Shown here: positions 1-25,692 of the stretch, one piece after another
Position numbering within the stretch: position 1 is the first letter of the stretch
Layout of the letters: every line of letters starts with the position of its first letter
DNA from: Candidatus Magasanikiibacteriota bacterium
Lineage (GTDB): Bacteria > Patescibacteriota > Patescibacteriia > Magasanikbacterales > GWA2-37-8
Direction of reading: 5' to 3'
DNA length: 64,000 nt
Assembly (NCBI GenBank): GCA_009694865.1
Contig: SICD01000001.1
Coordinates: forward strand, 403 to 64,402
The notes under the pieces: generated by a model
The model's database searches: none
The model's input: only the letters and a program-made list of their open reading frames with translations
Told to the model about the DNA's origin: nothing
Made by a program: the position numbers and the translations under genes

Positions 1-217
1 TTGCGGCTTCCTCTAAAAATTTTGACATTCTTTTGATCAAGTCTTTTTTATTTTGTTGGAATGATTCTATGTAAAAATTTTCAAAGACACCAAAAACAAC
101 ATACTGGTTGTCGGCATTACCATGTGATGCGATAGCTTGAAAATCTTTAAAATCACGGATTTCAGGAATCAACCTTAATAATTCTCCAATACTATTTTGA
201 AAAGTTAAATTTTCCAT
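1..217 (-). CDS. Partial small protein (N-terminal 72 aa seen; runs off the window). Its start sits 5 nt after the stop of the giant repeat protein, so it may be an immunity-like partner.
   Basis: ATG at 215-217 on the minus strand gives an open frame to position 1 (MENLTFQNSIGELLRLIPEIRDF...). It is tightly coupled to the upstream gene, whose stop is at 223-225. No SD, as for other backbone genes. Confidence 0.4.
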   Translation of the reverse strand, partial: MENLTFQNSIGELLRLIPEIRDFKDFQAIASHGNADNQYVVFGVFENFYIESFQQNKKDLIKRMSKFLEEAA

Positions 218-222
218 AAATA

Positions 223-2286
223 TTATTTATTACACAGAGCGTCTTCTATATCATTTATCAAATCGTTAACAACTTCTTGATCGGAAAGACGAGCCTTCGG
301 GTTGTTGTTTAACCAATTCTTTAACCCTTTGAGATACGCCTTACCTTTTAAACTATGGAATTTATTACCAACTTGATTCCCTGTGGCCAACTCTTCACGA
401 ATTGCTCCGGCCGTACCACCGGGAATTTTATCAGTTGGCTGAAATAATTTATCTATATAATTTTTTTGAAGTATTTGATCATCTGCTTTAGGCTTATTCA
501 AAACTCGCTTAACTGACGTTTGTCCGCAATCATCACCTGATTTATTCGGCGGCTGTGGAGTGGCGGTAGCATCGACAGATACACTCTTTGGCTGTACCTT
601 TGGTAGTGCCTGATCTTGGCTAAGCGAAACGTCTTGTGGAACAGGCTCTCCGCATCCCGCGCATTCTGGCCAAAATACTCCAACTATAATTCCAATAATG
701 GGCAGTGCTCTCAAACCAACCTTCGCTGCCGCGCCAGCTAACTCCGCCCCTCCAATGGCGGGCAAGGCAGGCCACGCAGGCGTTAACACACCTTCCGCCG
801 TTCCGGCAGTAAATGCTACGTAGCCGATTGGCGAAATAGATGGAGTATTTATAATAGCCTTCAAGGACGACTCATCCGTTATGGCTCCGGTATAATATAT
901 ACTACTATGAACATCAACCGTGCTTCCATCGCCCATATGAAAGCTCGCATCAGGCATTAATACTTTAATTTTCTTCACCACCTGCTTCGGTACCTCCACC
1001 ACATATTCATAAACCTCTTTCACTTTCTGGATAACCGTCTCCTTAACCGTATCATACACGGTTTTAACAACCCGATAGGCCTCTTCAGATTTTTGCGTCA
1101 CATAATCGGTAACTTGCCGAACGACTGGAACAATTTTTTCCACCAATCGTTTACCAGTTTGCCACACCGTATCCACTACTTGACGCACTACCTGAACTGG
1201 CTTTTGCACCCAACGATAAGCTGTCTCGCGCACAGTATCATAAACTGTTTTTACTACTGACACCGCGCGATTCACCCACTCCGTCACCGTGTCGTACACC
1301 GTGCGAGCCACGCTCGTTATCACGGGGACAACTCTGGCTACTGTTCGAGTAACATAATCGGTAATCGTATCGTATACCGTGCGAGCGACGTGAGTGATTT
1401 GTTGAACCAATTGAGTGACATACCCCCAAAACTTACCCAACCAACTACTTACTTGTTTCGGCACCCAACTGGTAACTGCATCCCAAACAGTACGGGCTAC
1501 TTGCCGAACCACTGGAACAGTTTCCTGTATCCACTGCGTCACATAGTTAGTCACGCGATCATACACAGTGCGAGCGATTTGTTTTGTCACCGCCACCTGC
1601 TGATTTACCCATTCGGTAATTTGGCGTGGTACTTGTTTAACTACTTCATAGGCTTCCCGAACGTTTTCTATCACGGTCTCCACCACATTTCTAACAACTT
1701 GGACGGGGTAGGCGTAGGCTTCTTCCACAAACGTTTTAACATATTCAACCACTTGCCGCACTATTGGCACAGTCTTCTCAATCAAACGCGTTCCAGTTTC
1801 AATTATGGTACGGGGCACCTCATGGACTACCTCCACAACCTTATCTACCCAGCGTTCACCGGTTTTAATTACTTTTTCCGTGGTATCAAAAACAACGTCA
1901 ATAATTTTCTCGACCCAACGCCCTCCATTAGAATCAGTAACATTATTTGCGGTCGATAAAACTGTTGCCACATTTGACCGGACCGGAACCGACACGGTAG
2001 TAGGGATTTCAACAACTTTCGCTGGCACTGTCGTGACAATTGGAAGAAGCGGCAATTCTGATGACGCGGCGCCAAAAAATGTTGGCTTGGGCGATCTGGT
2101 CAAAGGAGTTTGTAAACGTCCCGGAGCCGAAACAGTAAAAGGAATTGCTTGCTTTGAAGGCGCAGTGAAACTCCCGGCAGACGGACTAAAAATACCAATC
2201 GCGGCTGCGGGAACCACGTTTGAAAAAAAAGTTGAAACCAAAACCAAAAAAACGAAAAATTTTCTGATAATGATAAGTCGTTTCAT
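223..2286 (-). CDS. Large secreted protein (about 687 aa). It has a signal peptide, roughly 40 tandem 11-residue amphipathic-helix repeats, a C-terminal hydrophobic segment and a distinct roughly 100-aa C-terminal domain of unknown (toxin-like?) function.
   Basis: ORF track 223..2331. The likely ATG is at 2286 (MKRLIIIRKFFVFLVLV... signal peptide). The repeats follow the pattern TVYDTVTEWVN / RQVVDTVWQTG. A C-terminal hydrophobic stretch LRALPIIGIIVGVFW precedes the tail ...KIPGGTAGAIREELATGNQVGNKFHSLKGKAYLKGLKNWL.... The two + strand ORFs 1390..1959 and 1805..2542 are shadows of the repeats. Confidence 0.7.
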   Translation of the reverse strand: MKRLIIIRKFFVFLVLVSTFFSNVVPAAAIGIFSPSAGSFTAPSKQAIPFTVSAPGRLQTPLTRSPKPTFFGAASSELPLLPIVTTVPAKVVEIPTTVSVPVRSNVATVLSTANNVTDSNGGRWVEKIIDVVFDTTEKVIKTGERWVDKVVEVVHEVPRTIIETGTRLIEKTVPIVRQVVEYVKTFVEEAYAYPVQVVRNVVETVIENVREAYEVVKQVPRQITEWVNQQVAVTKQIARTVYDRVTNYVTQWIQETVPVVRQVARTVWDAVTSWVPKQVSSWLGKFWGYVTQLVQQITHVARTVYDTITDYVTRTVARVVPVITSVARTVYDTVTEWVNRAVSVVKTVYDTVRETAYRWVQKPVQVVRQVVDTVWQTGKRLVEKIVPVVRQVTDYVTQKSEEAYRVVKTVYDTVKETVIQKVKEVYEYVVEVPKQVVKKIKVLMPDASFHMGDGSTVDVHSSIYYTGAITDESSLKAIINTPSISPIGYVAFTAGTAEGVLTPAWPALPAIGGAELAGAAAKVGLRALPIIGIIVGVFWPECAGCGEPVPQDVSLSQDQALPKVQPKSVSVDATATPQPPNKSGDDCGQTSVKRVLNKPKADDQILQKNYIDKLFQPTDKIPGGTAGAIREELATGNQVGNKFHSLKGKAYLKGLKNWLNNNPKARLSDQEVVNDLINDIEDALCNK

Positions 2287-2299
2287 ACTTTTTTTCAAA

Positions 2300-2345
2300 T
2301 CATTATTAAAAAACAAATTTAAAGCCCCCAAAATTGGGGGCTTTA
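2300..2345 (-). terminator. Intrinsic terminator or attenuator hairpin between the flp pilin gene and the giant repeat-protein gene
   Basis: Palindrome aaagcccccaaaattgggggcttt at about 2321-2344. On the minus strand it is followed by a T-rich tract (tttgtttttt). This fits the common partial terminator found after pilin genes. Confidence 0.45.
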
Positions 2346-2349
2346 AAAA

Positions 2350-2526
2350 CTATAAGGGTTTTGTACCAAGTGCCGCGGTAGCGGCTTTAAAGGCATCGCC
2401 GAGTTTGTCTCGAAACGCCACCACCAGTATCACCAGCCCGGCAATAACCAAAGCTATTAATAGGCCGTACTCCGCCATGGCCTGGCCCGACTCATCAGAA
2501 AACCATTTTTTTACAACACGCGACAT
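2350..2526 (-). CDS. flp: Flp/Fap-family type IVb prepilin (58 aa)
   Basis: Hand translation of the minus strand gives MSRVVKKWFSDESGQAMAEYGLLIALVIAGLVILVVAFRDKLGDAFKAATAALGTKPL. This has the Flp G-x4-EY processing motif followed by a hydrophobic helix. Length is 177 nt including the stop. It was not in the ORF track because it is under 60 aa. Confidence 0.75.
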   Translation of the reverse strand: MSRVVKKWFSDESGQAMAEYGLLIALVIAGLVILVVAFRDKLGDAFKAATAALGTKPL

Positions 2527-2627
2527 ATGGTTGATGATATAAGAATAAATGTATTTAAAATATGAGCATGAGCTTTCTCGATTTAAATTTAGTTAAATGT
2601 AGAAATCGTGAGCGTTGTTTACACTTT

Positions 2628-2769
2628 TGTCATTCCGACCGAAACGAATCGCCTCGCGGCGATGAGTGCAATGGAGGTCATCACAGATACTCCGAGGAGT
2701 GAATCTCGCCGTAATGGCTTGATAAAATGGCTTAACTACGAGATCCCGCGACTGCGCTCGGGATGACAA
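2628..2769. repeat. MITE-like palindromic element, family A (termini tgtcattccgac...gggatgacaa), intergenic
   Basis: The terminal inverted repeats are visible. It shares the internal module ...gagatccc.../...gggatctc... with the other copies. ORF 2593..2796 lies inside it and is spurious. Confidence 0.7.
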
Positions 2770-2884
2770 TTGGTGGTTATCGCAAAGTGTATACAACGCT
2801 CTAAATTCTTACAAGTTAAACTAACAAAACACGTCTCTAAAACATTGTAGGTACACTGTCACGAAAGCGACATGTTGTCAAAAA

Positions 2885-2917
2885 ACTTATCCACAGGGTC
2901 ATTCGACCCTGCGAGCA
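2885..2917 (+). repeat. 33-bp repeat acttatccacagggtcattcgaccctgcgagca (DnaA-box-like TTATCCACA plus a 7-bp-stem hairpin); copy 1
   Basis: A near-identical copy lies in inverse orientation at 11923..11955. A weaker third box (ttatccacagga) is at 15738..15749. Confidence 0.5.
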
Positions 2918-2930
2918 ATGGATAGCATCT

Positions 2931-3242
2931 TTAGTTTAACAAAGAGGCGATGTCGTTCCCCACGAAGAGGGCGTGCTTTCCCGCCCCGCCTTCAGCCAAT
3001 TCCAAACAGGCCACCGTCCCCTTCGGCCCCCTCGCCACTCGCCAAGGGCCAAGATTGGCCTGTATCTCAATAACTTTATTTTGCCAGTCAAGCCACACCA
3101 CGTCAATTGGGAAACGCATAAACCAAGTATGCACTCCCATACAATGAGGAATCAAAAGGGCTTCGTCCGGCGGCAAATTAGATTTTCCAAGAAGCCCAAT
3201 CAGACGAGCGAAAAATGTTTTGGCGGTATAAATAGTGAGCAT
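2931..3242 (-). CDS. DUF192 (COG1430)-family protein
   Basis: Pattern recall: 103 aa with ...IPHCMGVHTWFMRFPIDVVWLD...ACLELAEG..., typical of DUF192. Confidence 0.5.
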   Translation of the reverse strand: MLTIYTAKTFFARLIGLLGKSNLPPDEALLIPHCMGVHTWFMRFPIDVVWLDWQNKVIEIQANLGPWRVARGPKGTVACLELAEGGAGKHALFVGNDIASLLN

Positions 3243-3249
3243 ACATACA

Positions 3250-4887
3250 TTATACCACCCCCTCGCTCGGCGGCGTTGGTTTCAGCGGTATCCAAAACCC
3301 AAACTCACTCCCCTTTTTAAGCCCCGCACTTTTGGCCCACACCCGCCCGCCATGGGTTTCAATAAACTTGCGACAGACATACAGCCCCAAACCCGTGCCG
3401 TTCACATTCTTATTTTTTACATTCTCGCCCCGATAAAACTTTTGGAAAAAATTTGGTTGGTCCACCACTCCAAAACCAAAACCTTTGTCGTTAACCCGAA
3501 CCGCCAAACCATCTTTCTCGGGCGCTACCGTTACCGTAATATCGCCGTGCTCGCTGTACTTAATGGCGTTGTCAATAAAATTAAATACCACATGGCGCAC
3601 TTTTTCCTCATCCATAATAATGACTGGTAATTTAATATGGCGCCACACCAATCGGGGACCACGTTGTTTAGCCCGCTCTTCCAATTCTTTCACCACTCCA
3701 TCTATTAAAACGGCCATATCATGCTCGGCAAAATCAAATTTGGTGCGCCCTTGCTCAATCCGCGTAATATCCAAAAATTCATCCACGAGTTTAATTAAGC
3801 GGCCGTTGCTCTCGTCAATATTGTGAAAAATATCTTTGGTGGCCTTGGTCACTTTGCCATACGCGCCATCACCCAATAATTCAATATAGCCGTTAATAAT
3901 AGAGAGGGGCGTGCGAAGCTGATGCGCCGCAATGGAAAGAAAATCGGTTTTCTGGCGGTCGAGCTCTTGCAAACGCGCATTGGCTAATTCCAAAGATTTG
4001 GCGAGTTTAGATAATTCTTCGCGCTGGGCAATTTCTTTAGTAACGCTTTTAACTAAAAACACTCCTAAACCAGCCACCAAACAAGCCAAAACAATTTTAA
4101 ACAAGATAATCGGGAGCGAACCAGACAACACCCCTTCCGAAAGAAGTAAAATCGTCAAAATAGCCACTAGAACTTCAGTGGCCACAATTTTAATGTCAAA
4201 TAAATGATATCTAAAGATAGCGTAGGCGATAAAACTAATTAAAATAACGGAGGAAAGCGGCCCCAAAAATACCGCCGCCGATGTTTTGAGAATAACCACA
4301 AAAATGACCGTTGTGATGGCCATAAAAGAAAACGTGGCGATGACTCCCAAAAGAAAAAATAAAATTTGAACCCGTTCGTTGCCGCTTGATTTGCGGTGCT
4401 TGTAGATTAGAATAATGAAACTTAAAATAAATAGACCGACAAAATCAGCAAAAAAAATACCAATGCCCGGCCCCGGTACTGGCACCGGTTCGCCGCTCGC
4501 GTAACTTAGAGAACTAAATACCGCCGGGGTTAAAGACGCAATGGCCGATGTGGCCATAAGAATAATAAGGGGAACAAGATAGCGCGTTTTAATAGTAAAA
4601 TGATCATGCGGGAAAGTTGCTACCAAAAATACCAAAGTGGGTCCAATAAACGAACAGGTAAACATTACAACCCTAATCCAAAAAAGTTGCGCCGCGACCT
4701 CCGGCGGGTGGAGTGAAATAAAATTGACTAAAATATAAACATCTATTAAAAAACTCAAAATAATAAAAAACCGACTCGTCCAACTTGCCCTATTTTTAAG
4801 CCAGACCACCAAGCCTAAATAGGTAGTAAACAAAAACGTAAAAATACCCAAAAGTATTTCGGCGTTGAAGAGCTGAAAGTAGTTCAT
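3250..4887 (-). CDS. Sensor histidine kinase with a multi-pass (about 7 TM) N-terminal sensor domain. There is no adjacent response regulator.
   Basis: HisKA H-box LSIAAHQLRTPLSIINGYIELL and HATPase_c G-box GTGLGLYVCRKFIETHGGRVWAKS. The likely start is the ATG at 4885-4887 (MNYFQLFNAEILLG...). The longer ORF-track start at 5037 runs into the foreign high-GC island. Confidence 0.8.
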   Translation of the reverse strand: MNYFQLFNAEILLGIFTFLFTTYLGLVVWLKNRASWTSRFFIILSFLIDVYILVNFISLHPPEVAAQLFWIRVVMFTCSFIGPTLVFLVATFPHDHFTIKTRYLVPLIILMATSAIASLTPAVFSSLSYASGEPVPVPGPGIGIFFADFVGLFILSFIILIYKHRKSSGNERVQILFFLLGVIATFSFMAITTVIFVVILKTSAAVFLGPLSSVILISFIAYAIFRYHLFDIKIVATEVLVAILTILLLSEGVLSGSLPIILFKIVLACLVAGLGVFLVKSVTKEIAQREELSKLAKSLELANARLQELDRQKTDFLSIAAHQLRTPLSIINGYIELLGDGAYGKVTKATKDIFHNIDESNGRLIKLVDEFLDITRIEQGRTKFDFAEHDMAVLIDGVVKELEERAKQRGPRLVWRHIKLPVIIMDEEKVRHVVFNFIDNAIKYSEHGDITVTVAPEKDGLAVRVNDKGFGFGVVDQPNFFQKFYRGENVKNKNVNGTGLGLYVCRKFIETHGGRVWAKSAGLKKGSEFGFWIPLKPTPPSEGVV

Positions 4888-6395: not shown

Positions 6396-7568
6396 ATGGA
6401 CAATTACTCTGCCTGGAACGTTCCCCAGCATTCTCCTGATATTTTTAAAACACTCCCCCCGCGAGAACAGCTAGAATATCTGTGCGCCTTGGCCCACCTC
6501 GCCCCCAGCACCCACAACACCCAGCCATGGCGATTTAAGATATCGGTGGAGACGCACATTATTGAACTCTATCTGGATCGCAACACCGTACTGCCGGCTT
6601 CGGACGTGGTGGGTCGACAATCGGTAGTGAGCTGTGGCACGGCGCTCGCTCACCTCAAACTCGCTTCGGAATATTATGGCTTTAAAGCAGAAGTGGCTAC
6701 CGCGTCAATTGATCCAGCGTCAGTGAAACCGCTTCCTGTTTCGAGCCTCCCCTCACCCAACCTCTCCCGTGAGGAGAGGAGGTCGTTCCCCTCGCCCCGC
6801 GGGAGAGGGACGCAGGGTGAGGGGTCGCCGCTCGCAATCATAGCGCTCACCCCAGCGACACCAAACCTAAATAAAGAAAAATTAATCACCAGTATCTGGA
6901 AACGAAAAATGATGCGCGCGGAATTTAAACCAGACCAACTCATCCCAACAGAAGTAATATCAGAATTAAAACAATGGACCGATAACGACGTAACAAAACT
7001 TCACATTATAACCGACCCGGTGCGACGCTTGAGCATCGCGGAATTCCAAGCCCAGGCCGATGGGTTTGTGATAAACTCAACAAAATTTAGCCGTGAGCTC
7101 GGCGATTGGCTCCTCCCCAACGATACAAATTCCCCGGTCGGCATGCCCGGCATTGGTTTTGGCCTGCAAGACGAAGAAGCTAAACGATTACACGCCGGAC
7201 TCTCTGGCGAAAAAGCTCTCGAAGCCGAAGACGGCCTGCGTTTTGCTTTGGGCGGAAAAATGGGGCTAGAAAAATCGCCGCTCATTGGCTTTATTACGAC
7301 CAAAGATGACACACCGGAAAGTTGGCTGGCGGCGGGCGAAGCGTTTGAAAAAATGAATTTAACGCTCGTTGCCGCCGGTTTAAGCGTTGCCATGCACGCC
7401 GGCATTACCGAAGTACCGCTCATTAAAAAAATTTTTAGCGTGTCGCTCGGCACGCTCCGGCCTATCACTGTGCTCTTTCGCGCCGGTTATTTAAAAAATG
7501 AGCACGATGCGAATCGCCCTCATTCTCCTCGTCTGCCACTCTCCGCTGTCATCCTGAAAGATAAGTGA
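6396..7568 (+). CDS. Nitroreductase-superfamily protein (long form, about 390 aa) carrying an in-frame palindromic insertion
   Basis: The nitroreductase signature APSTHNTQPWRF is near the N-terminus. The size fits a two-domain (Acg/SagB-like) nitroreductase. Family-B element 6747-6824 is translated in-frame as ...[31 protein letters not shown].... Confidence 0.65.
   Translation: MDNYSAWNVPQHSPDIFKTLPPREQLEYLCALAHLAPSTHNTQPWRFKISVETHIIELYLDRNTVLPASDVVGRQSVVSCGTALAHLKLASEYYGFKAEVATASIDPASVKPLPVSSLPSPNLSREERRSFPSPRGRGTQGEGSPLAIIALTPATPNLNKEKLITSIWKRKMMRAEFKPDQLIPTEVISELKQWTDNDVTKLHIITDPVRRLSIAEFQAQADGFVINSTKFSRELGDWLLPNDTNSPVGMPGIGFGLQDEEAKRLHAGLSGEKALEAEDGLRFALGGKMGLEKSPLIGFITTKDDTPESWLAAGEAFEKMNLTLVAAGLSVAMHAGITEVPLIKKIFSVSLGTLRPITVLFRAGYLKNEHDANRPHSPRLPLSAVILKDK
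6747..6824. repeat. Palindromic element family B (cccctcaccc...gggtgagggg with two internal hairpins), in-frame inside the nitroreductase gene
   Basis: cctcccctcacccaacctctcccgtgaggagaggaggtcgttcccctcgccccgcgggagagggacgcagggtgagggg. A second copy is at 61803-61877 inside uvrB. Confidence 0.65.
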
Positions 7569-7584
7569 AGGATCTAATTTAAAT

Positions 7585-7719
7585 TGTCATTCCGAATCCC
7601 CCGTCGCAGGGGGTGAGGAATCTCTGTCTCAATCAACGTAACGACAGACAGAGATCCCCCTACGAGGGATCGCGAGACCTCGTCGCACCGCACGATACGG
7701 GGCTCGCTCGGGATGACAG
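7585..7719. repeat. MITE-like palindromic element family A, filling exactly the gap between convergent genes (stop at 7568 and stop at 7720)
   Basis: tgtcattccgaatcccccgtcgcagggggtgagg...cgctcgggatgacag. Confidence 0.7.
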
Positions 7720-8970
7720 TTAAAAAATCTTCGCTGTCAAATTGTGTTTATTAATAATCGCCCTTGGCGGATAATCGTAACCAAGCCGAATTCGCGCCAC
7801 CGTTTCAGCCGCTACTGCACCCGCCATCGCCACGGTTGACCCCAGTTGCGGAATTAAAGTTGAAGTAGGAATTTCACTTTTTTCTTCAATAATATCTTTT
7901 AACTCGTCTTGACGATACGCGGTGCCAACGAGGCTATCCACAAACGCAAAAAATGCTTGCCTATTGCCAGGCCGATTATAAACTTCTTCCATTTTTTTAT
8001 ACAACTCACTATCGGTCGTTCCAAATGTGAGCGGAAGCGTTTGGTCTTGGTCAAATCGACACACATCCAGTTGCACAGCCGAGCCAATGTCCGTCACCAT
8101 CACCACCGGAAGTTTCCGTTTCCTTGCTTCCTCGCGAATGAATAATTTCACACGTGGATCATCCACTTCTTCCACAACAATATCGGTCGTTGGCTCGCCC
8201 TCTCTGCCATCAAAAAATTCTTTCACATTATCCAATGTCACGCCTTCGTCGTACACAAACACATTCATATACGGATCCATGGCATAAATTTGTTCCGCCA
8301 CGACCCGCGCTTTATTTTTTAACGCCAAATCTACTTCGCTTGCTCGCTCGGCCTGGCTTTTTACCATTTCAAAATATCCCAAACGCACGCGGTTAATATT
8401 TTCCATTTTATACAAACTCTTGTCGGCTACTTTAATATTACTCGGACGCATGTCCATAACCAGGCTATGGATGACGCTGCTCCCCACGCTGCACCCGGCC
8501 ACTGCCACAACAGTAGTAGATAATTTCTCTCGCACCTCTGCCCAGGATAATTTTTTATTTTTATCAGTCAGCAGGGTGGAACTACTGGTGACAGCCACGG
8601 TGTGATGCCAGTACGGCGGACAAAACCTCACTAGATGGTTCCGCTCGGCATAATAAGCATAATACCCATAAGCAAACGGCGCACCTGGCCCCAAAACGGA
8701 TAATTGATTGCTGTAATTTTCCCATTCACCATTAAACTCTTCACGCAAACTTTTCCCAGAAGCGCCCCGCGCCGAAAGCGTCAATCTCTCATTCAAACCA
8801 AAAATTGTGGCTTGGGTTAAATCGTATTGATGCGACGGTGGGACGCCTCGCTCCTCGCCATCAATCGTAATTTTTGTTGTTCCGTCATTTTCGTAACGCA
8901 CCAAACCTAAACTGTGAGCCACACCAGCTTCATAGATAAACGGTTTACCAATTAGTCGAGAAACGGACAT
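7720..8970 (-). CDS. ThiF/MoeB/E1-like adenylyltransferase-family protein with a roughly 150-aa N-terminal extension
   Basis: Rossmann GxGxxG loop VAVAGCSVGSSVIHSLV followed by a ThiF-like core. Its start is 3 nt after the stop of the upstream 371-aa gene. Confidence 0.6.
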   Translation of the reverse strand: MSVSRLIGKPFIYEAGVAHSLGLVRYENDGTTKITIDGEERGVPPSHQYDLTQATIFGLNERLTLSARGASGKSLREEFNGEWENYSNQLSVLGPGAPFAYGYYAYYAERNHLVRFCPPYWHHTVAVTSSSTLLTDKNKKLSWAEVREKLSTTVVAVAGCSVGSSVIHSLVMDMRPSNIKVADKSLYKMENINRVRLGYFEMVKSQAERASEVDLALKNKARVVAEQIYAMDPYMNVFVYDEGVTLDNVKEFFDGREGEPTTDIVVEEVDDPRVKLFIREEARKRKLPVVMVTDIGSAVQLDVCRFDQDQTLPLTFGTTDSELYKKMEEVYNRPGNRQAFFAFVDSLVGTAYRQDELKDIIEEKSEIPTSTLIPQLGSTVAMAGAVAAETVARIRLGYDYPPRAIINKHNLTAKIF

Positions 8971-8973
8971 AGT

Positions 8974-10089
8974 CTATTTAAGATCAAGAGCCGCGACCGC
9001 TGCGTCCAATTGCGCGCGCCACCCTGGCGCGTCAATAAATCGGAGTAGTGGTCCATCCCCCACTTCCGCGTCTACCAAGGCTCGCAGTTGTTTACCAGTT
9101 AACGTAGCGCCGGGAATTTGTCCATGGGCTGTAAGCAGACGCCCCAATCCGCGCAGATGATTCAATAAATCGCGGTGCGATGATTCTTCCCACTGTTCAA
9201 TTTCATGTTCCACAAAATTTTCCAAAAAATGACAAAACGACTGCGCTGTCATCTTGCCTTCGTGATAAAGCCGTTTGAGGAGCCGTGCTAGCTCGTGCAT
9301 ATTCAAAAAATACCCCGGAAAACGATAGGCCATTACTTTGCGCTCCAACATAATTTCTTCCGGAGTACATTTAAAATGCACTTCAATACCCGGCACAGTG
9401 AGCTGAACATTTGTTTCGCGCTGAATCTCCATCGAAATTTTATTAAATAGTCGTTCACTAAACACCGCTGTAACAAAGGTAAGATCGCGCGTGGTGGCAT
9501 GGTGAAACACATAATAATTCATCAGCAAAAAAGCGACCGCTGAATATTTAAGACGCGTGGAACGATTCCCAATAAGACCCTTGGAATTATAATGAGCAAA
9601 ACCGCAAATGCGCGATATCGTCATGACATTTTTCCAAAAAACACCCTCACTCTCGCCCACCTCCTCCGCGAGATGCTGACCAACACTTTTTCCAAGAAAA
9701 TGATACTGGTCAAGATCTTCAGTGGAAAGTGGCGTGCCGTTCGCTGGAATAAAACGAGTGCTTACCCATTCCGTATGATACGTTACCACCCCTTCTTCGT
9801 CGGTCGCTGGATAATCTACTCGGCACAGATATACCGCGGCCTTGTCGTCGTAGCTATCGAGCAACGGCACCGCGCCATAACGCAAGTACGATCGCCGCGC
9901 TTCACTCACCAGCGCTGGCCAATGGGGGTGAAGCCAATTAGATACGTGGAATTCTTTTGCTTCGTATAAAACAAAATGAACCTGACCCCAACGATAGGTA
10001 TAAAGAGGGTCGGGTAATTCACTGGTAAGATGCTGGATATGCTCCGGCGTCAAAGCTGACTTTCCATTTCGATGGATGCCAAAAGGCAT
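8974..10089 (-). CDS. Hypothetical protein (371 aa), translationally coupled between argS and the E1-like gene
   Basis: Open frame with a conserved-looking Cys/His-containing core (...MTISRICGFAHYNSKGLIGNRSTRLKYSAVAFLLMNYYVFHHATTRD...). No family was recognised with confidence. Confidence 0.55.
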   Translation of the reverse strand: MPFGIHRNGKSALTPEHIQHLTSELPDPLYTYRWGQVHFVLYEAKEFHVSNWLHPHWPALVSEARRSYLRYGAVPLLDSYDDKAAVYLCRVDYPATDEEGVVTYHTEWVSTRFIPANGTPLSTEDLDQYHFLGKSVGQHLAEEVGESEGVFWKNVMTISRICGFAHYNSKGLIGNRSTRLKYSAVAFLLMNYYVFHHATTRDLTFVTAVFSERLFNKISMEIQRETNVQLTVPGIEVHFKCTPEEIMLERKVMAYRFPGYFLNMHELARLLKRLYHEGKMTAQSFCHFLENFVEHEIEQWEESSHRDLLNHLRGLGRLLTAHGQIPGATLTGKQLRALVDAEVGDGPLLRFIDAPGWRAQLDAAVAALDLK

Positions 10090-17679: not shown

Positions 17680-19401
17680 CTACAGTTCATCTTCAATAAC
17701 ATCTATCTCCTCTTCAATTTTCTTTTCAATACCACGAATCTGCGCCCGCAGATCGCGTAGAACCTTTTCTTCGGCCGCGCTTAATTTTCGCTCGGCCATG
17801 GCCTGTTCCAAATGTTTAATATCCTGCCGCATTTGTTCGGCTAAATCACCTAATGATTCGTGCACCGTGTTGCGTATCAGTACAGCCTCTTTACGCAACA
17901 ACCGGTTGGTATAAAAACCCCGATACGAGAAAAAAAGAATAATGGCAAAAAGCACAAGAATAACCGCCACCAAAATTATAATAATATAGTTATAGGCGCT
18001 TATGGATTCCAAGAGGGGCACCGGGTGAACGGTAAATGTTTCTACGGCGCTTCGCTCGCTCACATTGCCGCTGGTGTCAATGGCCTGGACCCAAAACGCA
18101 TAGGTACCCCGACGTAACTTTTTAGGCCACGCCAGAGAAAAATATCCGGCATTGTTGCTTTTGGTCTCGGCCATGGAAATTATTCCTTTGCTGTCTTTAA
18201 CCGATACCACGGCGGTGGCAAAGGGGTACGAACTACCCTGGACTTGAAATAAGTCGCCCTCGTCTAAATCGGCCGGAAAATTTGAAACCAGGGGCATGGC
18301 CAGCGGATTAATAACCACTTCTGCATTAGCTTCGCGAAAATTACCGGCATTATCTACGGCCCGCACGAGCACCGCGTATTTCCCTGGCTCACGAGGCGGC
18401 AATACAAAAGGGTTAGATTCCACCACCTCGGCCGGAACTACCTTTAAATAGGGGGAATCGCCAATTTTAACCTCATAATACGCGATACCAGAAATTTTAT
18501 CGGGTGTATTAAACAAAACAACCGGCCGCTGATCGGGAGTCACGTCGCCATGAGGGAATGTGACCGCAAACGGTTCAGGCGGTTCGTTGTCAATTTGCAG
18601 ACGGTAGACAACTACTTTTCCCCAGCCAAGGGCAGTGCGCGCCTGCAGTTGAAAATACCAAACACCATTGGCCAAATCAGGGATAGTTTTAGAGCGAACC
18701 GAAACTGGCACGGCCTGGCTAGGCAGAGCGCCTACCTCCCGACTTATTCCCCACCGAGTCGCGCTCGTGAGGGGCGGCAGGGTCCAGTTAAAGACAGCGG
18801 TTGACGTGGCATACCAGCCTGTCGAATCTGGATGGGTAAGAGAACTAATACGCGGGAGAGTTGGGTCGTCGCTCAACGATTTTGACAAGCTGCTAGACCC
18901 CTGAATAACATACTGCGCTGATTCGGTTTTGGCTTGTACATTGGTGCCGTTACCATCGTTCGCTAGTACCAGGGCGGAAACAAACGACACCTGCGCCACC
19001 CCTGAAGAAAGCGCGCGGAAGCGAATAGTGGCCAAAGTTCCTCCCGACCCGCTAAACCCCGGATTTTTAATAATGCCCTCTAGGCCAATGGTGCTCTGGT
19101 TACGGATAATAACAGGCTCGCGTACCCAAAAATCAATAATTGAATTACTAGTGGAAACAGACAGGGCTTCGAGAGTGGTTGCGGAATAACGCAAAATCGC
19201 CTGCACCGCGTTTATGGGGTCATCGCTCCCGGCCTCAAGGGTAACGGTAAAAATATCGCCAGCCGAAATAGGGGCGCGCGGACCAACAAAAAACAAGCGA
19301 GCCGGTTTATCCGTTGCCGTTGCACTAGAGGCAAGTGCGGCTCCGATAACGGATGAGAGCATCGCCACCCCGATAATTATTTTTTTAAATAAATCCCCCA
19401 T
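17680..19401 (-). CDS. Surface protein (573 aa) with a signal peptide, an N-terminal cohesin-like domain, FN3/Ig-like repeats, and a C-terminal TM anchor plus cytoplasmic coiled-coil tail
   Basis: The cohesin-like pattern is ARLFFVGPRAPISAGDIFTVTLEAGSDDPINAVQAILRYSATTLEAL...GGTLATIRFRALSSGVAQVSF. The FN3-like pattern YYEV...VRAVDNAGN occurs three times. The TM segment is YIIIILVAVILVLFAIILFF, followed by a charged helical tail. Confidence 0.65.
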   Translation of the reverse strand: MGDLFKKIIIGVAMLSSVIGAALASSATATDKPARLFFVGPRAPISAGDIFTVTLEAGSDDPINAVQAILRYSATTLEALSVSTSNSIIDFWVREPVIIRNQSTIGLEGIIKNPGFSGSGGTLATIRFRALSSGVAQVSFVSALVLANDGNGTNVQAKTESAQYVIQGSSSLSKSLSDDPTLPRISSLTHPDSTGWYATSTAVFNWTLPPLTSATRWGISREVGALPSQAVPVSVRSKTIPDLANGVWYFQLQARTALGWGKVVVYRLQIDNEPPEPFAVTFPHGDVTPDQRPVVLFNTPDKISGIAYYEVKIGDSPYLKVVPAEVVESNPFVLPPREPGKYAVLVRAVDNAGNFREANAEVVINPLAMPLVSNFPADLDEGDLFQVQGSSYPFATAVVSVKDSKGIISMAETKSNNAGYFSLAWPKKLRRGTYAFWVQAIDTSGNVSERSAVETFTVHPVPLLESISAYNYIIIILVAVILVLFAIILFFSYRGFYTNRLLRKEAVLIRNTVHESLGDLAEQMRQDIKHLEQAMAERKLSAAEEKVLRDLRAQIRGIEKKIEEEIDVIEDEL

Positions 19402-19407
19402 GTTATT

Positions 19408-20328
19408 TTATTTTTTTATGCGTCGGCGTATACCAAAAACGAACAGAAGCGCAACGCCACTTACTACTAGTATACTCCAAATTCGTACAGAATAAAATGG
19501 TGATAAATTAACTGACGGAGGCAATGTCACCATAGCGCGATTCCCAGCACTGTCGACTGCCCGAACCGCCACAAAATGACGCGCCAATTGATCGCGCAAT
19601 ATATAAGGGCTGGTGGCGCGCTTCCAGGCGCCCGGCTTCGCATCACTCTCTCGAGTTTCCGCCACTTCATAATACTCAACTCCTGACTGCGTATCTCGCC
19701 CCATAAATACTACGGTTTTGACCCCCCCTGCCACCATAGGGTGCTCGGCGCGTTCTGCTACCAGAGAGGGCGGCGTGGTATCAGAAACGCGAAGCAAAGC
19801 CGCGGGGGCCACTCCTTGAGATTCAATAATATTAACGGTTAACGGTACAACCGTTACTGGCAACACAGTTGCTTTACCATCATGAGAGAGGAGGCTCACT
19901 TTAGACAAGGAAAATGTTACCGAGCCGGGCTCTCTAGCTTCAAAATCCACGCTAAACATTTTACCCGGTTCTGGTTCTTTGGCATACGGACTAAACACAC
20001 CTTGAAAACCGCCAGGAATAATTCCGGAAAAAACCACTCCCCGTTTTTGAATAACAGGGGCAGTAACCCACCAAGTAATAATTGAATTAGCGCCCGAAGT
20101 AGCGCGCGGAACTACCCGATCCGTATCGGCTTCCAGCGTTCCCTCTAAGGCATTAATCACCACCTCGTCCGGCTTAAGTTCGGCCGACACGGTAAAGGTA
20201 CTGCCCACCGGAACCGACCGTGCGGGACCAATTAAATTAATAGTGGCGGCCTTAGCAACACCGCCCATTGCTAAAGCAATAAATCCAAGGGCAATACTAA
20301 AACCCAAACGCAAAATAAAAAATTTCAT
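19408..20328 (-). CDS. Surface protein (306 aa) with a signal peptide, a cohesin-like domain, an FN3-like domain and a C-terminal TM anchor
   Basis: ATINLIGPARSVPVGSTFTVSAELKPDEVVINALEGTLEAD...SIITWWVTAPV... aligns by eye with the N-domain of the 573-aa protein. C-terminal anchor IWSILVVSGVALLFVFGIRRRIKK. Confidence 0.6.
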   Translation of the reverse strand: MKFFILRLGFSIALGFIALAMGGVAKAATINLIGPARSVPVGSTFTVSAELKPDEVVINALEGTLEADTDRVVPRATSGANSIITWWVTAPVIQKRGVVFSGIIPGGFQGVFSPYAKEPEPGKMFSVDFEAREPGSVTFSLSKVSLLSHDGKATVLPVTVVPLTVNIIESQGVAPAALLRVSDTTPPSLVAERAEHPMVAGGVKTVVFMGRDTQSGVEYYEVAETRESDAKPGAWKRATSPYILRDQLARHFVAVRAVDSAGNRAMVTLPPSVNLSPFYSVRIWSILVVSGVALLFVFGIRRRIKK

Positions 20329-20338
20329 AATGCCTCAA

Positions 20339-21253
20339 TTAGCCCGTCCAATAAAACGCCATAATACTAAAATCTTTTAAATCAATCTGTCCGTCATTAT
20401 TTAAATCAAACTGCGCCGGTGCCCCGGGTTTTGCATACCAAAAAGCAATCATGGAAAAATCTACCAAATTAACACGCTGGTCTGCGTTAAAATCTCCGAG
20501 TAGTGTCTGCGTACCCGCCGGGTTAAAGGTCGTTGTATCCCCGAGCAATACCGTTTCGGGGCGACTGGCCGGGGTTTCCTTATCCCCCACTATAACCGAG
20601 GCCTCTAACGTATAGGTTCCGCGCAAGAACGGTTTTGTGTTAATAACCACCCGAAATAAACCGACGTTGTTAGAGCGCGTGGTAATAAGAGCCGAGGAAG
20701 GACCCTTTAAACGAATTGTCACCCGCGCGCCCGGCGAGGAGAGGCCGCTCACAATTAAATTATCGCCTTGCTTTACCGCGCTCTGGTCTGCCCACATCAC
20801 GGGCGTGGCAACAATACCGCTAACCGTGAGGGTGGTACGCTCGGCAACTAACAGTGGAATCAAAAAATTGCTGGAACGAAAACCGTTGGTATCAATGCTA
20901 TTAATAGTAAAGACGTGGTTGCCAATTGTAACCGCCGGTAAAACAATGGTAAATGCACCCTGCGCTGTGGTTGTGGCGCTGGTGGTGAGCACGCCATCAG
21001 TGAGAATTGTTATACGAGCTCCTGGGAACGACGTGCCGGCAAAACTCACGCTGGTAGGTGTGTTAAGTTCAGAAAAAGCCCCGCCCCCGCCAGATGTTTG
21101 CCCTGGAGAATTGGACTGTGTCCCCGGCAACACTACCGCGGTCACCGTTATGGTAGTTTCAGCCCCCTGTACCCTCTCCCCCGCCACCAACAAAAAAACA
21201 GCCAGCATTATTGCCAGGCCGACTGAATATAATTTTGAAACAGTGGTAATCAT
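20339..21253 (-). CDS. Secreted protein (304 aa) with two Ig-like domains and a C-terminal type-I-like dockerin module
   Basis: The C-terminus carries duplicated calcium-loop segments: GDFNADQRVNLVDFSMIAFWY and FDLNNDGQIDLKDFSIMAFYW (DxNxDxxVNxxD pattern, two copies). Confidence 0.7.
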   Translation of the reverse strand: MITTVSKLYSVGLAIMLAVFLLVAGERVQGAETTITVTAVVLPGTQSNSPGQTSGGGGAFSELNTPTSVSFAGTSFPGARITILTDGVLTTSATTTAQGAFTIVLPAVTIGNHVFTINSIDTNGFRSSNFLIPLLVAERTTLTVSGIVATPVMWADQSAVKQGDNLIVSGLSSPGARVTIRLKGPSSALITTRSNNVGLFRVVINTKPFLRGTYTLEASVIVGDKETPASRPETVLLGDTTTFNPAGTQTLLGDFNADQRVNLVDFSMIAFWYAKPGAPAQFDLNNDGQIDLKDFSIMAFYWTG

Positions 21254-21261
21254 GGGCCTTA

Positions 21262-22278
21262 CTAGTGGCGGGAATCACGCGCGCGAGCAATAATCCAGGC
21301 ATTATAACGCCGAATACCCACGCGGCCGCCGATCAATATCAAAGCTATAATTAGAACACAAAGAGTTAGCAGCTGCCACGGCACCAGTAGCACGCGCTGC
21401 GTAGCCATCATTTGCTCGACCGATTCCACCCCCCACTTTAAGTCGAGCTTGGCGGTGTACAACCCAAAAGCAAAATGATTCCATTGGTGTTTTACGGTTT
21501 GCCAATAACCAGCGGGCCGATTTAAATTGCCAGCAAATTCTTGAGGCCAAACGACCTCAAAACGCCGAATGCTCGCCGGTAAAACATTATTTTCTGCCGG
21601 GTTGGCGGAAAGCTCGGCCACCTTCTGGCCAAGCATAGAAGTAATTGTTATGGTTCCGGCAGGCTTTAGCCGATCACCCCCGCCGTTGCGCAAACGAAAC
21701 ACAAACGTCACTGGCACGCTATCAAACCAGCGCTGGTTATTAAGCGAAGTAAACTCAACTAGCCCAGCTTCCTCTTTGACATCGCCCGAAACACGAAGCA
21801 AAACCAGGGTGCCTATTTTGGCTCCCACGGCTAATTGCCCGCCTTGGCCCTGGCTTGGCGTTGTGCTCCAAAAAATTGCGGCAAAGTGGCCACCCGGTTC
21901 TGCCGACGCCGGAATGGTTATGGTAAAAGGAACTTTACGCTGCTCTCCCGGAGCCAGGGTTATCTCGCCAGACGTGTTCACCCATGTTGACAAGCCTTCG
22001 GTTCCAGCCACAAAATTGGGTACTCCACCTTCGCCTTGGGCCTCAAAATTTTCGGCCGAAGAATAAAAACGTTTGGACTCCTTTTGGTCATTCATGAGGA
22101 GGAGTTCGGAACTAATAACACTGCCCGGGTCCCCCGTTAACTCCAGTCGCGCCGGAGAAATGGTAAGGGCCTTCGCGCTCTTTGACCCTAAAAAAAAGCT
22201 CATCGCTATCAAAAAAAATATCGCGGAGCTCTTTGTTGCCGAACGGAAAAAAATATGAAACGTAAGAAACTTTTTCAT
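21262..22278 (-). CDS. C-terminally membrane-anchored surface protein (338 aa) with an N-terminal beta-rich domain resembling pilus-chaperone / DUF916-like domains
   Basis: Signal peptide, then ALTISPARLELTGDPGSVISSELLLMNDQKESKRFY. C-terminal TM LLTLCVLIIALILIGG followed by a basic tail RVGIRRYNAWIIARARDSRH. Confidence 0.55.
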   Translation of the reverse strand: MKKFLTFHIFFRSATKSSAIFFLIAMSFFLGSKSAKALTISPARLELTGDPGSVISSELLLMNDQKESKRFYSSAENFEAQGEGGVPNFVAGTEGLSTWVNTSGEITLAPGEQRKVPFTITIPASAEPGGHFAAIFWSTTPSQGQGGQLAVGAKIGTLVLLRVSGDVKEEAGLVEFTSLNNQRWFDSVPVTFVFRLRNGGGDRLKPAGTITITSMLGQKVAELSANPAENNVLPASIRRFEVVWPQEFAGNLNRPAGYWQTVKHQWNHFAFGLYTAKLDLKWGVESVEQMMATQRVLLVPWQLLTLCVLIIALILIGGRVGIRRYNAWIIARARDSRH

Positions 22279-22315
22279 ACGTTACCAACCTCCCATTTAA
22301 ACATATAAAAAAGGA

Positions 22316-23368
22316 CTAGAAGTTTGCGGTGGCAACGTAGGTTAACGTGGCTGTATAGCTACCCGCTTCGGTGTTAGCGCCGATATTAGCCAGATACCGC
22401 ACCGAGTAGGTGGTGTTGGCCGAAGCGCCCGCCGCCGATGCGACGGTACTTGCCGTGTTGCCCGTGGCGGCATAAGCAAACCCAGCGGCCGCATAGGGCG
22501 CGCTTACCGCACCGCTGCCGCCTGCCGCGTTACTACGCAAACCAAATTGTTCAGTGCCGGCGCTGGACGCGGTATTAACGTTACCAATGGCGCTAACCGT
22601 ATTAGCGCCGCTTGTTAGCGTGGCGCCTTTAACAGTAACGGTGTACCCGCTGTTTCCGTTGGTACTGGCAATTAAGGTATGCGCTTCGGCTTCCACGTCC
22701 GAGCCAGCACCAACGCCAGCATAGCGAGCCGCGGCCGAACTTAAAGTCCCAAAATCAATGGTGTTGGCCGAGATACTAAAAGACAAAGAGGGCGCGACCG
22801 TTGCCGAAATCGCCACTTGGTCGTTGGTGACAATCTGCACGCTCATGATTCCCGCATCACCAAACGTACCGCTAATAGTAATAGTATATGGCCCAGCGAC
22901 CGAGGGGTTAACGGCATTGGAGCTATCCAAAATCATAATGAGCTTATCGCTGGCCGCTACGGCCGCCGCGCCCACGCCATCCGTTGGCGCCGTTAAAGTT
23001 AATATACGATTTTGGACTCCGGAAAAAACCGCCCCCCAAGCAGTGGCGGAGGGGTTAGCGGCCAAGGTCTCGGTGTTCTCGGCCCCGGTATTGGCACCAT
23101 GGGTAAACGTCACAGTATTAATTGCTTTGCTCGACAAATTAAAATCTGAGGGAAATGTGACTATTATGGTATCAGTATTTTCATTGGCACCGGTTGGTGA
23201 AGTAAAAGTGAGGATGTGGCTCGAAGCGGTATTTACCTTAAGCGAGGACATGGTATCGCTTAAACCCATAAGCGCCGCCGCCTCCGCCCCGGAGTATGGC
23301 CACCCTACCCCAGCCATAATAACACTTATAACGAGAGTGGCGGAAACAATTATTTTGACTGTTCTCAT
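22316..23368 (-). CDS. Secreted protein (350 aa) whose C-terminal roughly 150-aa beta-domain is paralogous to the C-terminus of the next gene
   Basis: SLSFSISANTIDFGTLSSAAARYAGVGAGSDVEAEAHTLIASTNGNSGYTVTVKG...TEQFGLR...GSYTATLTYVATANF matches FLSFSISTSTAGFGLLYPHAARYATASGAGAATETEAHTLAIGSDGVLPYVITVQG...TNQFGLR...GEYQAALTYVVTATY. Confidence 0.6.
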   Translation of the reverse strand: MRTVKIIVSATLVISVIMAGVGWPYSGAEAAALMGLSDTMSSLKVNTASSHILTFTSPTGANENTDTIIVTFPSDFNLSSKAINTVTFTHGANTGAENTETLAANPSATAWGAVFSGVQNRILTLTAPTDGVGAAAVAASDKLIMILDSSNAVNPSVAGPYTITISGTFGDAGIMSVQIVTNDQVAISATVAPSLSFSISANTIDFGTLSSAAARYAGVGAGSDVEAEAHTLIASTNGNSGYTVTVKGATLTSGANTVSAIGNVNTASSAGTEQFGLRSNAAGGSGAVSAPYAAAGFAYAATGNTASTVASAAGASANTTYSVRYLANIGANTEAGSYTATLTYVATANF

Positions 23369-23466
23369 ATATTTAAAATTACTCCTTTTTTAGGATTTCT
23401 TTAGAGCCTATAGTATAACACAGTTTGCTCAAGTCTCGAACAAAGTTATACACATAATTAATTCGT

Positions 23467-25689: not shown

Positions 25690-25692
25690 GTA

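Follow-up and report, generated by a model that had tools for sequence, protein, structure and literature searches.

The left end of a 64,000-nucleotide stretch of DNA from Candidatus Magasanikbacteria (contig SICD01000001.1, positions 403 to 64,402; the whole of this stretch is called the window below) raises the question of what a secreted protein built of repeats does next to a gene for an Flp pilin. All features of the locus are carried on the minus strand, in the order DUF192 gene, flp, hairpin, an open reading frame (ORF) of 687 amino acids (aa) and a small gene. In the public record, the flp product (MSU74892.1) is named "Flp family type IVb pilin", and MSU74891.1 (identical to the 687-aa protein) and MSU74890.1 (the small gene) are both named "hypothetical protein". 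An earlier reading of the window from its letters (the sequence-only reading) had likened the architecture to polymorphic toxin/immunity pairs and to pilus-tip adhesins. As described in the following sections, a Tad/Flp pilus locus probably begins at this end of the window in this member of the Patescibacteria, or Candidate Phyla Radiation (CPR), carrying a polymorphic toxin system whose architecture is new.

C-terminal domain in the 687-aa protein

The 687-aa protein spans 223-2286, with an ATG start codon at 2286 and a stop codon at 223-225. A word-index search with its last 103 aa gave no match, and an exhaustive HMMER search was needed. When the last 130 aa were compared with 1.84 billion representatives using phmmer, 958 homologues were detected at E <= 1e-3, and for 101 of them E was 1e-10 or better. 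For the top 150 of these 958 homologues, which are proteins of 93-2634 aa, the match ends a few residues from the C-terminus each time. Pfam, NCBIfam and PDB sequences contain no match to the domain, either as a single sequence or as a 49-sequence profile, and a Foldseek search against PDB returned nothing below E = 2.

The core of the domain is conserved at residues ~599-687, in agreement with the sequence-only reading, which had described a C-terminal domain of about 100 aa unlike the repeats. An alignment of 49 sequences (A1) identifies P599, L606, G623, T625, A626, A628, R630, E632, T635, H644, K647, L655, D669, D679 and A683 as invariant or nearly so, and the motif can be written G-(S/G)-T-A-x-A-(I/V)-R-x-E-L-x-T-G-x-x-V-G-x-x-F-H-S-x-K. 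With A1 as input, AlphaFold produces a confident four-helix model of the domain, with a predicted local distance difference test (pLDDT) score of 87.

The domain is found behind a variety of unrelated N-terminal regions. In 80 homologues, the partner domains are RHS_repeat (8), PT-VENN (7), RHS core (5), PT-TG (3), PAAR (2), and MafB, Fil_haemagg_2 and WXG100_2 (one each); PT-HINT and T7SS_signal contexts likewise occur among the homologues, and some family members are CdiA C-terminal domains bearing the linker/entry region of the type present in uropathogenic Escherichia coli 536 (UPEC536). Hundreds of E. coli genomes have an orphan copy of the domain 3' of an Rhs gene. Because the homologues carry different toxin-trafficking N-termini, together with the DUF7674-type neighbour described in the next section, the C-terminal domain is read as a toxin, and by homology it belongs to a predicted polymorphic-toxin family.

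The E. coli members were also observed in a recurrent setting. A 1-kb stretch comprises the end of an Rhs gene, the toxin domain and the 125-aa gene that follows, and is located beside type VI secretion system (T6SS) genes; among 5426 complete genomes, 397 match it over at least 80% of its length. The loci concerned are L003:4001-4656 and L009:3277-5957 (related loci are numbered with the prefix L and related proteins with the prefix P).

A candidate immunity gene

The small gene begins with an ATG at 217, 5 nt past the toxin stop codon (223), a spacing already given in the sequence-only reading, and runs off the window. Its full length can be obtained from a 3-kb public contig (L001) that is identical to the window's left end. 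The complete product of 118 aa scores 44.6 bits with the Pfam family DUF7674 (PF24722), above that family's gathering score of 27 (E 1.7e-11), and covers model positions 3-103 of 111; the 72-aa part that lies in the window scores 21.2 bits by itself.

A DUF7674-type gene is present 3' of the toxin domain in five of the six loci examined. The sixth, from Saccharopolyspora, is marginal, with E 0.008 for its neighbouring gene against a local profile built from six DUF7674 proteins. In a metagenome contig (L005), a DUF7674 gene directly follows the toxin domain and is followed in turn by two more DUF7674 paralogues; in a Deinococcaceae genome (L008), the DUF7674 gene comes after an orphan consisting of PT-HINT and the C-terminal domain; and in L036 it comes after the toxin domain of a PT-TG contig, beside VgrG-type genes. 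The 125-aa E. coli neighbour (WP_001077738.1, annotated as hypothetical) matches the Pfam DUF7674 model weakly (E 9e-4) and the local profile with E 2e-7, and four unrelated small control genes did not match this profile. The E. coli protein resembles a divergent DUF7674 immunity protein.

The DUF7674 proteins have no signal peptide, which suggests that the toxin acts in the cytoplasm. A literature search for DUF7674 found no paper. The toxin/immunity interpretation offered by the sequence-only reading is supported by the occurrence of the C-terminal domain on classic trafficking N-termini and by its DUF7674 partner across unrelated phyla, and on this comparative evidence the C-terminal domain in the window and the adjoining DUF7674 gene are a predicted polymorphic toxin/immunity pair.

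A further small gene lies just past window position 1. It is located at L001:2764-3012, shares 4 nt with the immunity gene and codes for a small multi-pass membrane protein without a family, perhaps a further immunity factor or an accessory protein of the Tad system.

The stalk protein

The 687-aa protein begins with a Sec-type signal peptide. Residues 1-34 are hydrophobic, and residues 1-29 read MKRLIIIRKFFVFLVLVSTFFSNVVPAAA/IG (...VPAAA/IG). All full-length relatives have comparable Sec-type leaders that end in an AxA-like sequence, and none has a G-x4-EY prepilin leader. Assignment as a pilin-like tip subunit or Tad minor pilin (TadE, TadF, TadG; KilL/M/N) was considered and rejected, given that the leader is of the Sec type and not of the prepilin (class III) type, and the pilus-tip adhesin of the sequence-only reading, as it was stated, is not supported for the same reason. 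Separate TadE- and TadG-like genes are present in related loci. Neither haemagglutinin/filamentous haemagglutinin (FHA) repeats with a two-partner secretion (TPS) domain nor RHS/YD repeats nor an RHS core were detected in the protein.

The central part of the protein (residues 121-442) is a repeat body of 322 aa, 26% of which are valine. It contains ~29 hendecads, arranged as ~14.6 units of 22 residues that are punctuated by Pro. In a BLOSUM autocorrelation of the repeats, the signal is strongest at lag 22 (z = 13.5) and lag 44 (z = 9.4) and weak at lag 11 (z = 4.1; 1000 shuffles), and the hydrophobicity power spectrum of the body shows only one sharp peak, which lies at 3.67 residues (11/3) and has a power of 775, as compared with <=8 at 3.5 and 4.0. 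The body is a hendecad-type amphipathic helix with a narrow valine-rich hydrophobic face, and its register is kept over all 322 residues. No tandem repeats are present in the repeat region at the DNA level, and the protein repeats are therefore old and diverged and do not represent recent duplications. Confidence in the AlphaFold model of the whole protein is low (pLDDT 45), and the model was used for secondary structure alone; in it, residues 121-442 are predicted to be helical throughout.

The linker between the body and the toxin domain comprises a hydrophobic stretch rich in Gly and Ala (residues 516-546; nt 649-741), a CAGC motif and a spacer rich in Pro and Gln. No Pfam match was found in the linker (residues 443-590).

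These data bear on several earlier statements about the protein. The sequence-only reading had described a secreted protein of 687 aa with a hydrophobic segment, and both the Sec-type leader and the stretch at 516-546 agree with this description. It had also counted roughly 40 tandem 11-residue repeats; the repeats are real and well above what chance would give, but they number ~29 hendecads and the unit of sequence is 22 residues. The label "giant" is not apt for a protein of 687 aa.

Relatives of the stalk and their exchangeable ends

About 20 relatives of the stalk were found, all in CPR or metagenome contigs. A search with residues 1-560 detected 12 of them. When A2, an alignment that covers the final 157 residues of the body, was used for scans, three loci were detected among 185,579 species genomes and a further 12 in metagenomes. 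The relatives found are numbered P0216-P0227 and L020-L033. The labelled sources are Uhrbacteria, Peribacteria and Magasanikbacteria, along with one contig labelled Gammaproteobacteria. This last contig (L020; CAZBUQ010000031.1; 8 kb), binned as "uncultured Gammaproteobacteria", contains a stalk gene and a Tad operon, its tadA split by a frameshift, that are most similar to those of the Uhrbacteria locus, and is probably a mis-binned CPR contig, judging from these similarities.

The closest relative, P0216, is 63% identical to the window protein over residues 101-446, after which the similarity ends. The C-termini of other stalk proteins include TreTu_C (E 8e-21) and Gln_amidase (E 3e-7) domains as well as at least three unassigned types: one common to P0219, P0221 and P0223, a second in P0220 and a third in L022 and L023. 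The domains of the P0219/P0221 type and the P0220 type gave no match when compared with Pfam and with PDB sequences; some of these domains could conceivably be ParB-like.

The downstream genes change together with these domains. The genes that follow P0219 and P0221, which share a C-terminal domain, are homologous (35% identity, E 4e-27), and homologous genes also follow the two Gln_amidase cassettes (E 2e-14); neither of these pairs resembles DUF7674. Where bodies have different C-terminal domains, the downstream genes are not homologous. It had been proposed in the sequence-only reading that relatives be checked for retention of the body with exchange of the C-terminal domain and the downstream gene, and this is the pattern observed: the C-terminal domain is exchanged for TreTu_C, Gln_amidase or one of the at least three other types, and the downstream gene changes along with the domain. 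The picture set against that proposal, namely an invariant, structural C-terminal domain and small gene and no Tad machinery, was not found, and Tad genes adjoin the body gene in relatives.

Arrays of orphan cassettes provide a second view of this exchange. In the arrays of L013 and L016, each cassette combines the last ~100 body residues, fused to a new C-terminal domain, with a small gene and a 163-aa gene; among the relatives, orphan cassettes are present in L013, in L016 (which equals L025) and in L026-L029, and the contig of the window ends two genes downstream. The arrays have a recombination-ready layout of the kind known from rhs and cdi loci.

The protein of ~163 aa is conserved, has no Pfam family and occurs once per cassette (L013:3628-4119 and 8002-8493; L016:1998-2489, 4286-4774 and 6528-7037; L027:1534-2061). 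It could be a second immunity protein, an adaptor or a part of the recombination unit.

Linkage to Tad/Flp genes

The 58-aa ORF of the flp gene reads MSRVVKKWFSDESG/QAMAEYGLLIALVIAGLVILVVAF..., with a G-x4-EY site (...SG/QAMAEYGLLIALVIAGLVILVVAF) followed by a hydrophobic helix. Its match to Pfam Flp_Fap (E 1.7e-4, 21.7 bits) is under the gathering score of 32.2. However weak against that model, the window Flp is 44-49% identical to the Flp proteins encoded ahead of the body gene in L010, L014 and L015, and the Flp proteins across the related loci are homologous, with 39-65% identity and the motif SGQA[ML][AS]EYGL. The Flp prepilin with a G-x4-EY site reported in the sequence-only reading is confirmed; it was absent solely from the ORF track of that reading and is already annotated publicly.

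The GC hairpin and T-run that the same reading placed downstream of flp are also present, as a stem of 13 pairs (6 of them G-C) at 2347-2318 followed by TTTGTTTTTT. A strong hairpin after flp is found in most of the related loci, namely L010, L015, L022 and L024 (two copies in the last), and L014 has a longer, less typical helix. Such recurrence fits a pilin gene that is highly expressed and whose read-through is attenuated. The hairpin is terminator-like and would be an intrinsic terminator or an attenuator that separates the pilin gene from the toxin gene.

In all nine loci with enough flanking sequence (the window, L010, L012, L014, L015, L020, L022, L023 and L024), the stalk gene adjoins flp and/or Tad genes. 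The Uhrbacteria locus L010 has the order flp, a 317-aa gene, the body gene, tadE, a 186-aa gene (TadG-like), SAF/CpaB, T2SSE (TadA), T2SSF, T2SSF and Peptidase_A24. The order in L015 is flp, the body gene, genes of 116 and 244 aa, tadE, tad and SAF, and in L014 it is DUF192, flp, intervening sequence, the body gene and a 163-aa gene. L012 has DUF192, tadE, tad, SAF, a 241-aa gene, TadA, TadB, TadC, the body gene and a 170-aa gene. According to a local phmmer map, the body gene is followed by tadE through tadV in L020, L023 and L024, and DUF192 and flp lie 5' of the body gene in L022 and L024. The Tad machinery is therefore downstream of the body gene in L010, L015, L020, L023 and L024, and upstream of it in L012.

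The accessory genes of the related loci (317, 113, 125, 780, 186, 244 and 163 aa) have no Pfam family. No secretin gene was seen in the related loci, and the organisms consequently appear monoderm-like. By analogy with the gene order in the relatives, the Tad genes of the present genome should begin just past the end of the contig.

Possible activity of the toxin domain

CdiA-CT of E. coli 536 (Ntox28, "polymorphic toxin type 28"; PDB 5j43) is an all-helical tRNA anticodon nuclease that is activated by CysK. Among the 49 members of the window family, no match to Pfam Ntox28 was found at E <= 1. When the family profile was compared, using hhalign, with an Ntox28 profile made from the UPEC536 sequence and four Ntox28 relatives (5 sequences), the score was 25.8 (P 4.9e-4, probability 32%), and 72 columns were aligned with 32% identity. 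Of 30 column-shuffled controls, the highest reached a score of 19.4, and a score of 10 was obtained with the reversed alignment. In the alignment, the family's invariant His pairs with the His of the Ntox28 WDH motif, and both domains end in ...AL-x-G.

Two other comparisons were set aside. A single-sequence hhalign comparison with UPEC536 was unconvincing (probability 1.3%), and the phmmer matches between UPEC536 CdiA-CT and the family fall in the ELGGSGSGT linker/entry region, outside the toxin.

Several features differ from the UPEC536 Ntox28 protein. Three positions past the His, the window family has Lys where UPEC536 has Glu. The CysK-binding GYGI tail is missing, the family ending instead in ...AL-x-G-(K/R/N) and the window protein in ...ALCNK, and the immunity protein is DUF7674 and not a CdiI of the 536 type. 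The activity of the toxin is most likely that of a tRNase-like nuclease, although the confidence in this assignment from sequence is low.

Proposed mechanism and alternative explanations

The gene order, the domain architecture, the toxin family with its DUF7674 pairing, the swappable ends, the orphan arrays and the Tad linkage of the relatives can be read from the sequences, and a possible mechanism may be outlined from them. In this scheme, flp would be transcribed strongly, and read-through of the hairpin would yield smaller amounts of toxin and immunity mRNA. The stalk protein would leave the cell via Sec, and its stalk, probably oligomeric, would make a fibre of ~25-50 nm; at 0.15 nm per residue, 322 residues correspond to ~48 nm when fully extended and to about half of that as a hairpin. 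The fibre would display the toxin on the surface of the cell, at the Tad pilus or next to it, and pilus contact would put a neighbouring cell, either a competitor or a host bacterium, within reach. The C-terminal domain would then be freed and would enter the target cytoplasm, perhaps aided by the hydrophobic linker, to work there as an enzyme, most likely a tRNase-type nuclease. In the producer and its kin, DUF7674 would bind and neutralise the toxin.

A number of observations weigh against the proposal of a Tad-linked polymorphic toxin system. Toxicity, immunity, export and pilus dependence are predicted from the gene content, and the physical association of the stalk protein with the pilus is predicted from gene linkage. 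No Tad genes are present among the ~40 large ORFs of the 64-kb window, as the sequence-only reading had stated, and the contig ends ~400 nt beyond the window, so that the Tad genes of this genome are predicted by synteny alone. The Sec leader rules out a pilin-type subunit, and the linkage could mean co-regulation and not physical coupling. In P0216-P0218, P0226 and L024 (7892-10570), the variable domain and a hydrophobic Gly/Ala segment are N-terminal and the body is C-terminal, and L022 (2646-5774) has extra domains at both ends, an unusual arrangement among polymorphic toxins. How long the stalk is and in what oligomeric state it exists are guesses, the full-length model having a pLDDT of 45. 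Finally, the toxin domain could not be assigned to Ntox28: with an HH probability of 32% and no Pfam match, Ntox28 is a possible distant relative only.

An additional observation concerns a motif of the stalk proteins: the type ...DNTR...VAL...G... is N-terminal in P0218, P0226 and L022 and C-terminal in P0220.

The most far-reaching form of the proposal is that hendecad-stalk proteins are effectors of an unrecognised route, in which the Patescibacteria Tad/Flp pilus serves as a contact-dependent weapon and is required for display or injection. This is put forward tentatively, and its correctness is doubtful.

The main rival explanation is that the protein is a Sec-exported toxin, either attached to the surface or released, that acts independently of the pilus and lies near flp and tad genes through co-regulation or because they share a variable island. 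The ordinary Sec signal peptide, without a pilin-like N-terminus, would be expected of such a protein, a terminator-like hairpin parts flp from the toxin gene, and one homologue of the toxin domain is fused to MafB; Sec-dependent polymorphic toxins such as WapA and MafB are known. On the other hand, the stalk gene is located inside an operon-like array, from flp to tadE, in several phylum-level CPR lineages (Magasanikbacteria, Uhrbacteria and a metagenome-assembled genome labelled Peribacteria), is often only a few bases from tadE or overlaps it, and was found in no other context apart from orphan arrays and short contigs. Given this linkage, pilus-independent action is unlikely, but it has to be taken seriously.

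It is less probable still, and on balance improbable, that the hendecad body is primarily a lipid or membrane binder of the apolipoprotein/phasin type, its amphipathic 11/3 helices coating or taking up lipid of the host membrane for a lipid-auxotrophic episymbiont, with the toxin being secondary in some members. The 687-aa protein matches Pfam Phasin_2 with 31.2 bits (gathering score 24.9) and, weakly, Apolipoprotein, ApoLp-III and DUF445. Exchangeable apolipoproteins are likewise built of Pro-punctuated 22-residue units, as is the body, and a hydrophobic segment is present between the body and the variable domain in every case. The Pfam matches are discounted, however, because any long amphipathic helix attracts them, and the NCBIfam scores are below their cut-offs (phasin equivalog, 26.9 against 99.7; TIGR01841, 22.4 against 30.2). 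In view of these scores, the signal peptide and the toxin domain, membership of the body in a phasin or apolipoprotein-type family was rejected, and the Phasin_2 match was considered an artefact of periodicity. A narrow valine-rich face with a register maintained over 322 residues is more typical of a coiled-coil fibre, and a variable terminal domain is present in every relative examined, these domains being toxins wherever they can be identified.

That the C-terminal domain is not a toxin but a structural, adhesive or regulatory domain, with the small gene encoding a chaperone or being an unrelated neighbour, would suit a small four-helix domain with no Pfam, NCBIfam or PDB match, but is very improbable for a family that occurs exclusively at the C-terminus of Rhs, CdiA, PAAR, MafB and type VII secretion system (T7SS) proteins, after the demarcation domains PT-VENN, PT-TG, PT-HINT and RHS core, that retains a DUF7674-type neighbour across phyla and invariant polar residues (R, E, T, H, K, D), and that has orphan copies behind E. 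coli Rhs genes.

Features of the locus and of the rest of the window

The positions of the features are listed in Table 1.

Table 1. Features of the stalk/toxin locus in order of transcription; residue numbers are those of the 687-aa protein.
Feature	Position in window	Strand	Basis
DUF192 gene, first of the locus	2931-3242	-	Pfam DUF192, E 2.5e-16
Terminator-like hairpin 3' of the DUF192 gene	2891-2914	-	10-pair stem, then T-run
Long structured spacer 5' of flp, presumed promoter region	2527-2890 (364 nt)	-	
Flp (type IVc/Tad) prepilin gene, 58 aa, processing site G14/QAMAEY	2350-2526	-	
G+C-rich hairpin and T-run between flp and the toxin gene	2308-2347	-	
Signal peptide of the 687-aa protein, residues 1-29	2200-2286	-	Hydropathy
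Pro/Ser/Thr-rich spacer, residues 30-120, predicted disordered	1927-2199	-	Sequence; pLDDT <50, without secondary structure
Hendecad-repeat alpha-helical body/stalk, residues 121-442	961-1926	-	Periodicity statistics
Variable pre-toxin linker, residues 443-590	517-960	-	Body similarity stops at ~446; hydropathy
C-terminal toxin domain (predicted), residues ~591-687, four-helix	226-516	-	phmmer, alignment A1, AlphaFold
DUF7674 immunity gene candidate, first 72 of 118 codons inside the window	1-217	-	

The spacer 5' of flp is unusual in its length and structure, with just 65-85 nt in its place in the relatives. Its predicted RNA fold has z = -3.8, with none of 100 shuffles being equally stable. 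Within it, at ~2598-2813, is an element bounded by inverted repeats whose arms are at 2598-2641 and 2755-2813. This element looks like a small repeat of the miniature inverted-repeat transposable element (MITE) or repetitive extragenic palindromic (REP) kind. The 30-nt core of the element, TTGTCATCCCGAGCGCAGTCGCGGGATCTC, recurs with two mismatches at 28936-28965, between two phosphoglycerate mutase genes. An Rfam search over 1-3400 gave nothing credible and no family for the spacer; a match to "Phe_leader" (31 bits) in this region was rejected, being merely the terminator hairpin.

A DUF192 (COG1430) gene opens the Tad/Flp locus, directly 5' of flp or tadE, in the window and in four other loci (L012:326-601, L014:188-523, L022:1092-1478 and L024:5916-6284). 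It is possible that DUF192 is an accessory part of these Tad systems that has gone unrecognised.

Elsewhere in the window, the region 6396-10089 contains a nitroreductase-family gene (plus strand) beside a ThiF-family gene and a 371-aa gene without a family, which could be a small peptide-modification or cofactor cluster. The region 17680-21253 encodes a run of secreted proteins in which cohesin and dockerin domains occur along with Big_13 and Big_6 domains, so that this CPR genome has a cohesin/dockerin pairing like that of a cellulosome; the run is followed by four large ORFs without a Pfam family (21262-27192). Tandem paralogues of cofactor-independent phosphoglycerate mutase are located at 27219-28865 and 29071-30657, with the repeat element between them.

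Comparison with known systems

Hendecad (11/3) proteins include coiled-coil fibres, such as tetrabrachion and the stalks of trimeric autotransporters, which are right-handed or straight, and 11-mer lipid binders such as apolipoproteins, phasins, perilipins and late embryogenesis abundant (LEA) proteins. The stalk protein resembles these in its strict 3.67-residue periodicity over hundreds of residues and its 22-residue units, but there is no homology beyond periodicity, and the stalk protein is secreted, contains 26% valine in its body and is fused to a predicted toxin.

Polymorphic toxin systems (Rhs/T6SS, CdiA/type V secretion system, LXG/T7SS, MafB and WapA) owe their definition to comparative genomics (Zhang, Aravind and colleagues 2012; Jamet and Nassif 2015, cited in PMC6031116). 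The system described here shares with them an N-terminal delivery part that is conserved, a C-terminal toxin domain that varies sharply and, immediately downstream, an immunity gene that co-varies with it; the orphan cassettes of its relatives retain a piece of the conserved part, and the same toxin domain is found in Rhs, CdiA, PAAR, MafB and T7SS proteins. Unlike those systems, the stalk protein has no RHS/YD repeats, haemagglutinin repeats, LXG, PAAR or MafB domain. It has instead a Sec leader and a 322-residue hendecad stalk found only in CPR and metagenome sequences, its gene is embedded in Tad/Flp operons, and in some relatives the variable domain is N-terminal or present at both ends. 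A literature search on polymorphic toxins with Tad/Flp pili, or on such toxins in CPR Tad loci, found no paper. The toxin/immunity logic is ordinary, and the stalk and its partnership with the Tad operon are previously undescribed.

This has consequences for two uncharacterised families, a common C-terminal domain without a Pfam model and DUF7674, for which functions as toxin and immunity protein are proposed. The new delivery scaffold appears to be restricted to the CPR/Patescibacteria, whose means of attack, attachment and competition for host cells are poorly understood.

The closest functional parallel is Kil of Myxococcus xanthus, a Tad-like pilus required for contact-dependent killing of prey (PMC8460266; PMC12075869). 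In Kil, the tip of the pilus is made up of the variable modules, which are minor pilins of the TadE/F/G type with prepilin leaders, and according to its authors the Kil toxin remains to be discovered (PMC8460266). The presence of the stalk gene in Tad/Flp operons offers a concrete candidate for the coupling of a Tad pilus to killing, a question that is open for Kil. If the proposal is true, Tad pili would join the delivery systems of polymorphic toxins, and the kind of toxin still missing for Tad-dependent killing in predatory bacteria would be supplied. Unlike the Kil modules, the variable protein of the window has a Sec leader and is not pilin-like, and has a recognisable toxin domain and an immunity gene. 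As in Kil, however, Tad/Flp pilus genes would be tied to the killing of neighbours, and exchangeable variable modules are encoded together with the pilus genes.

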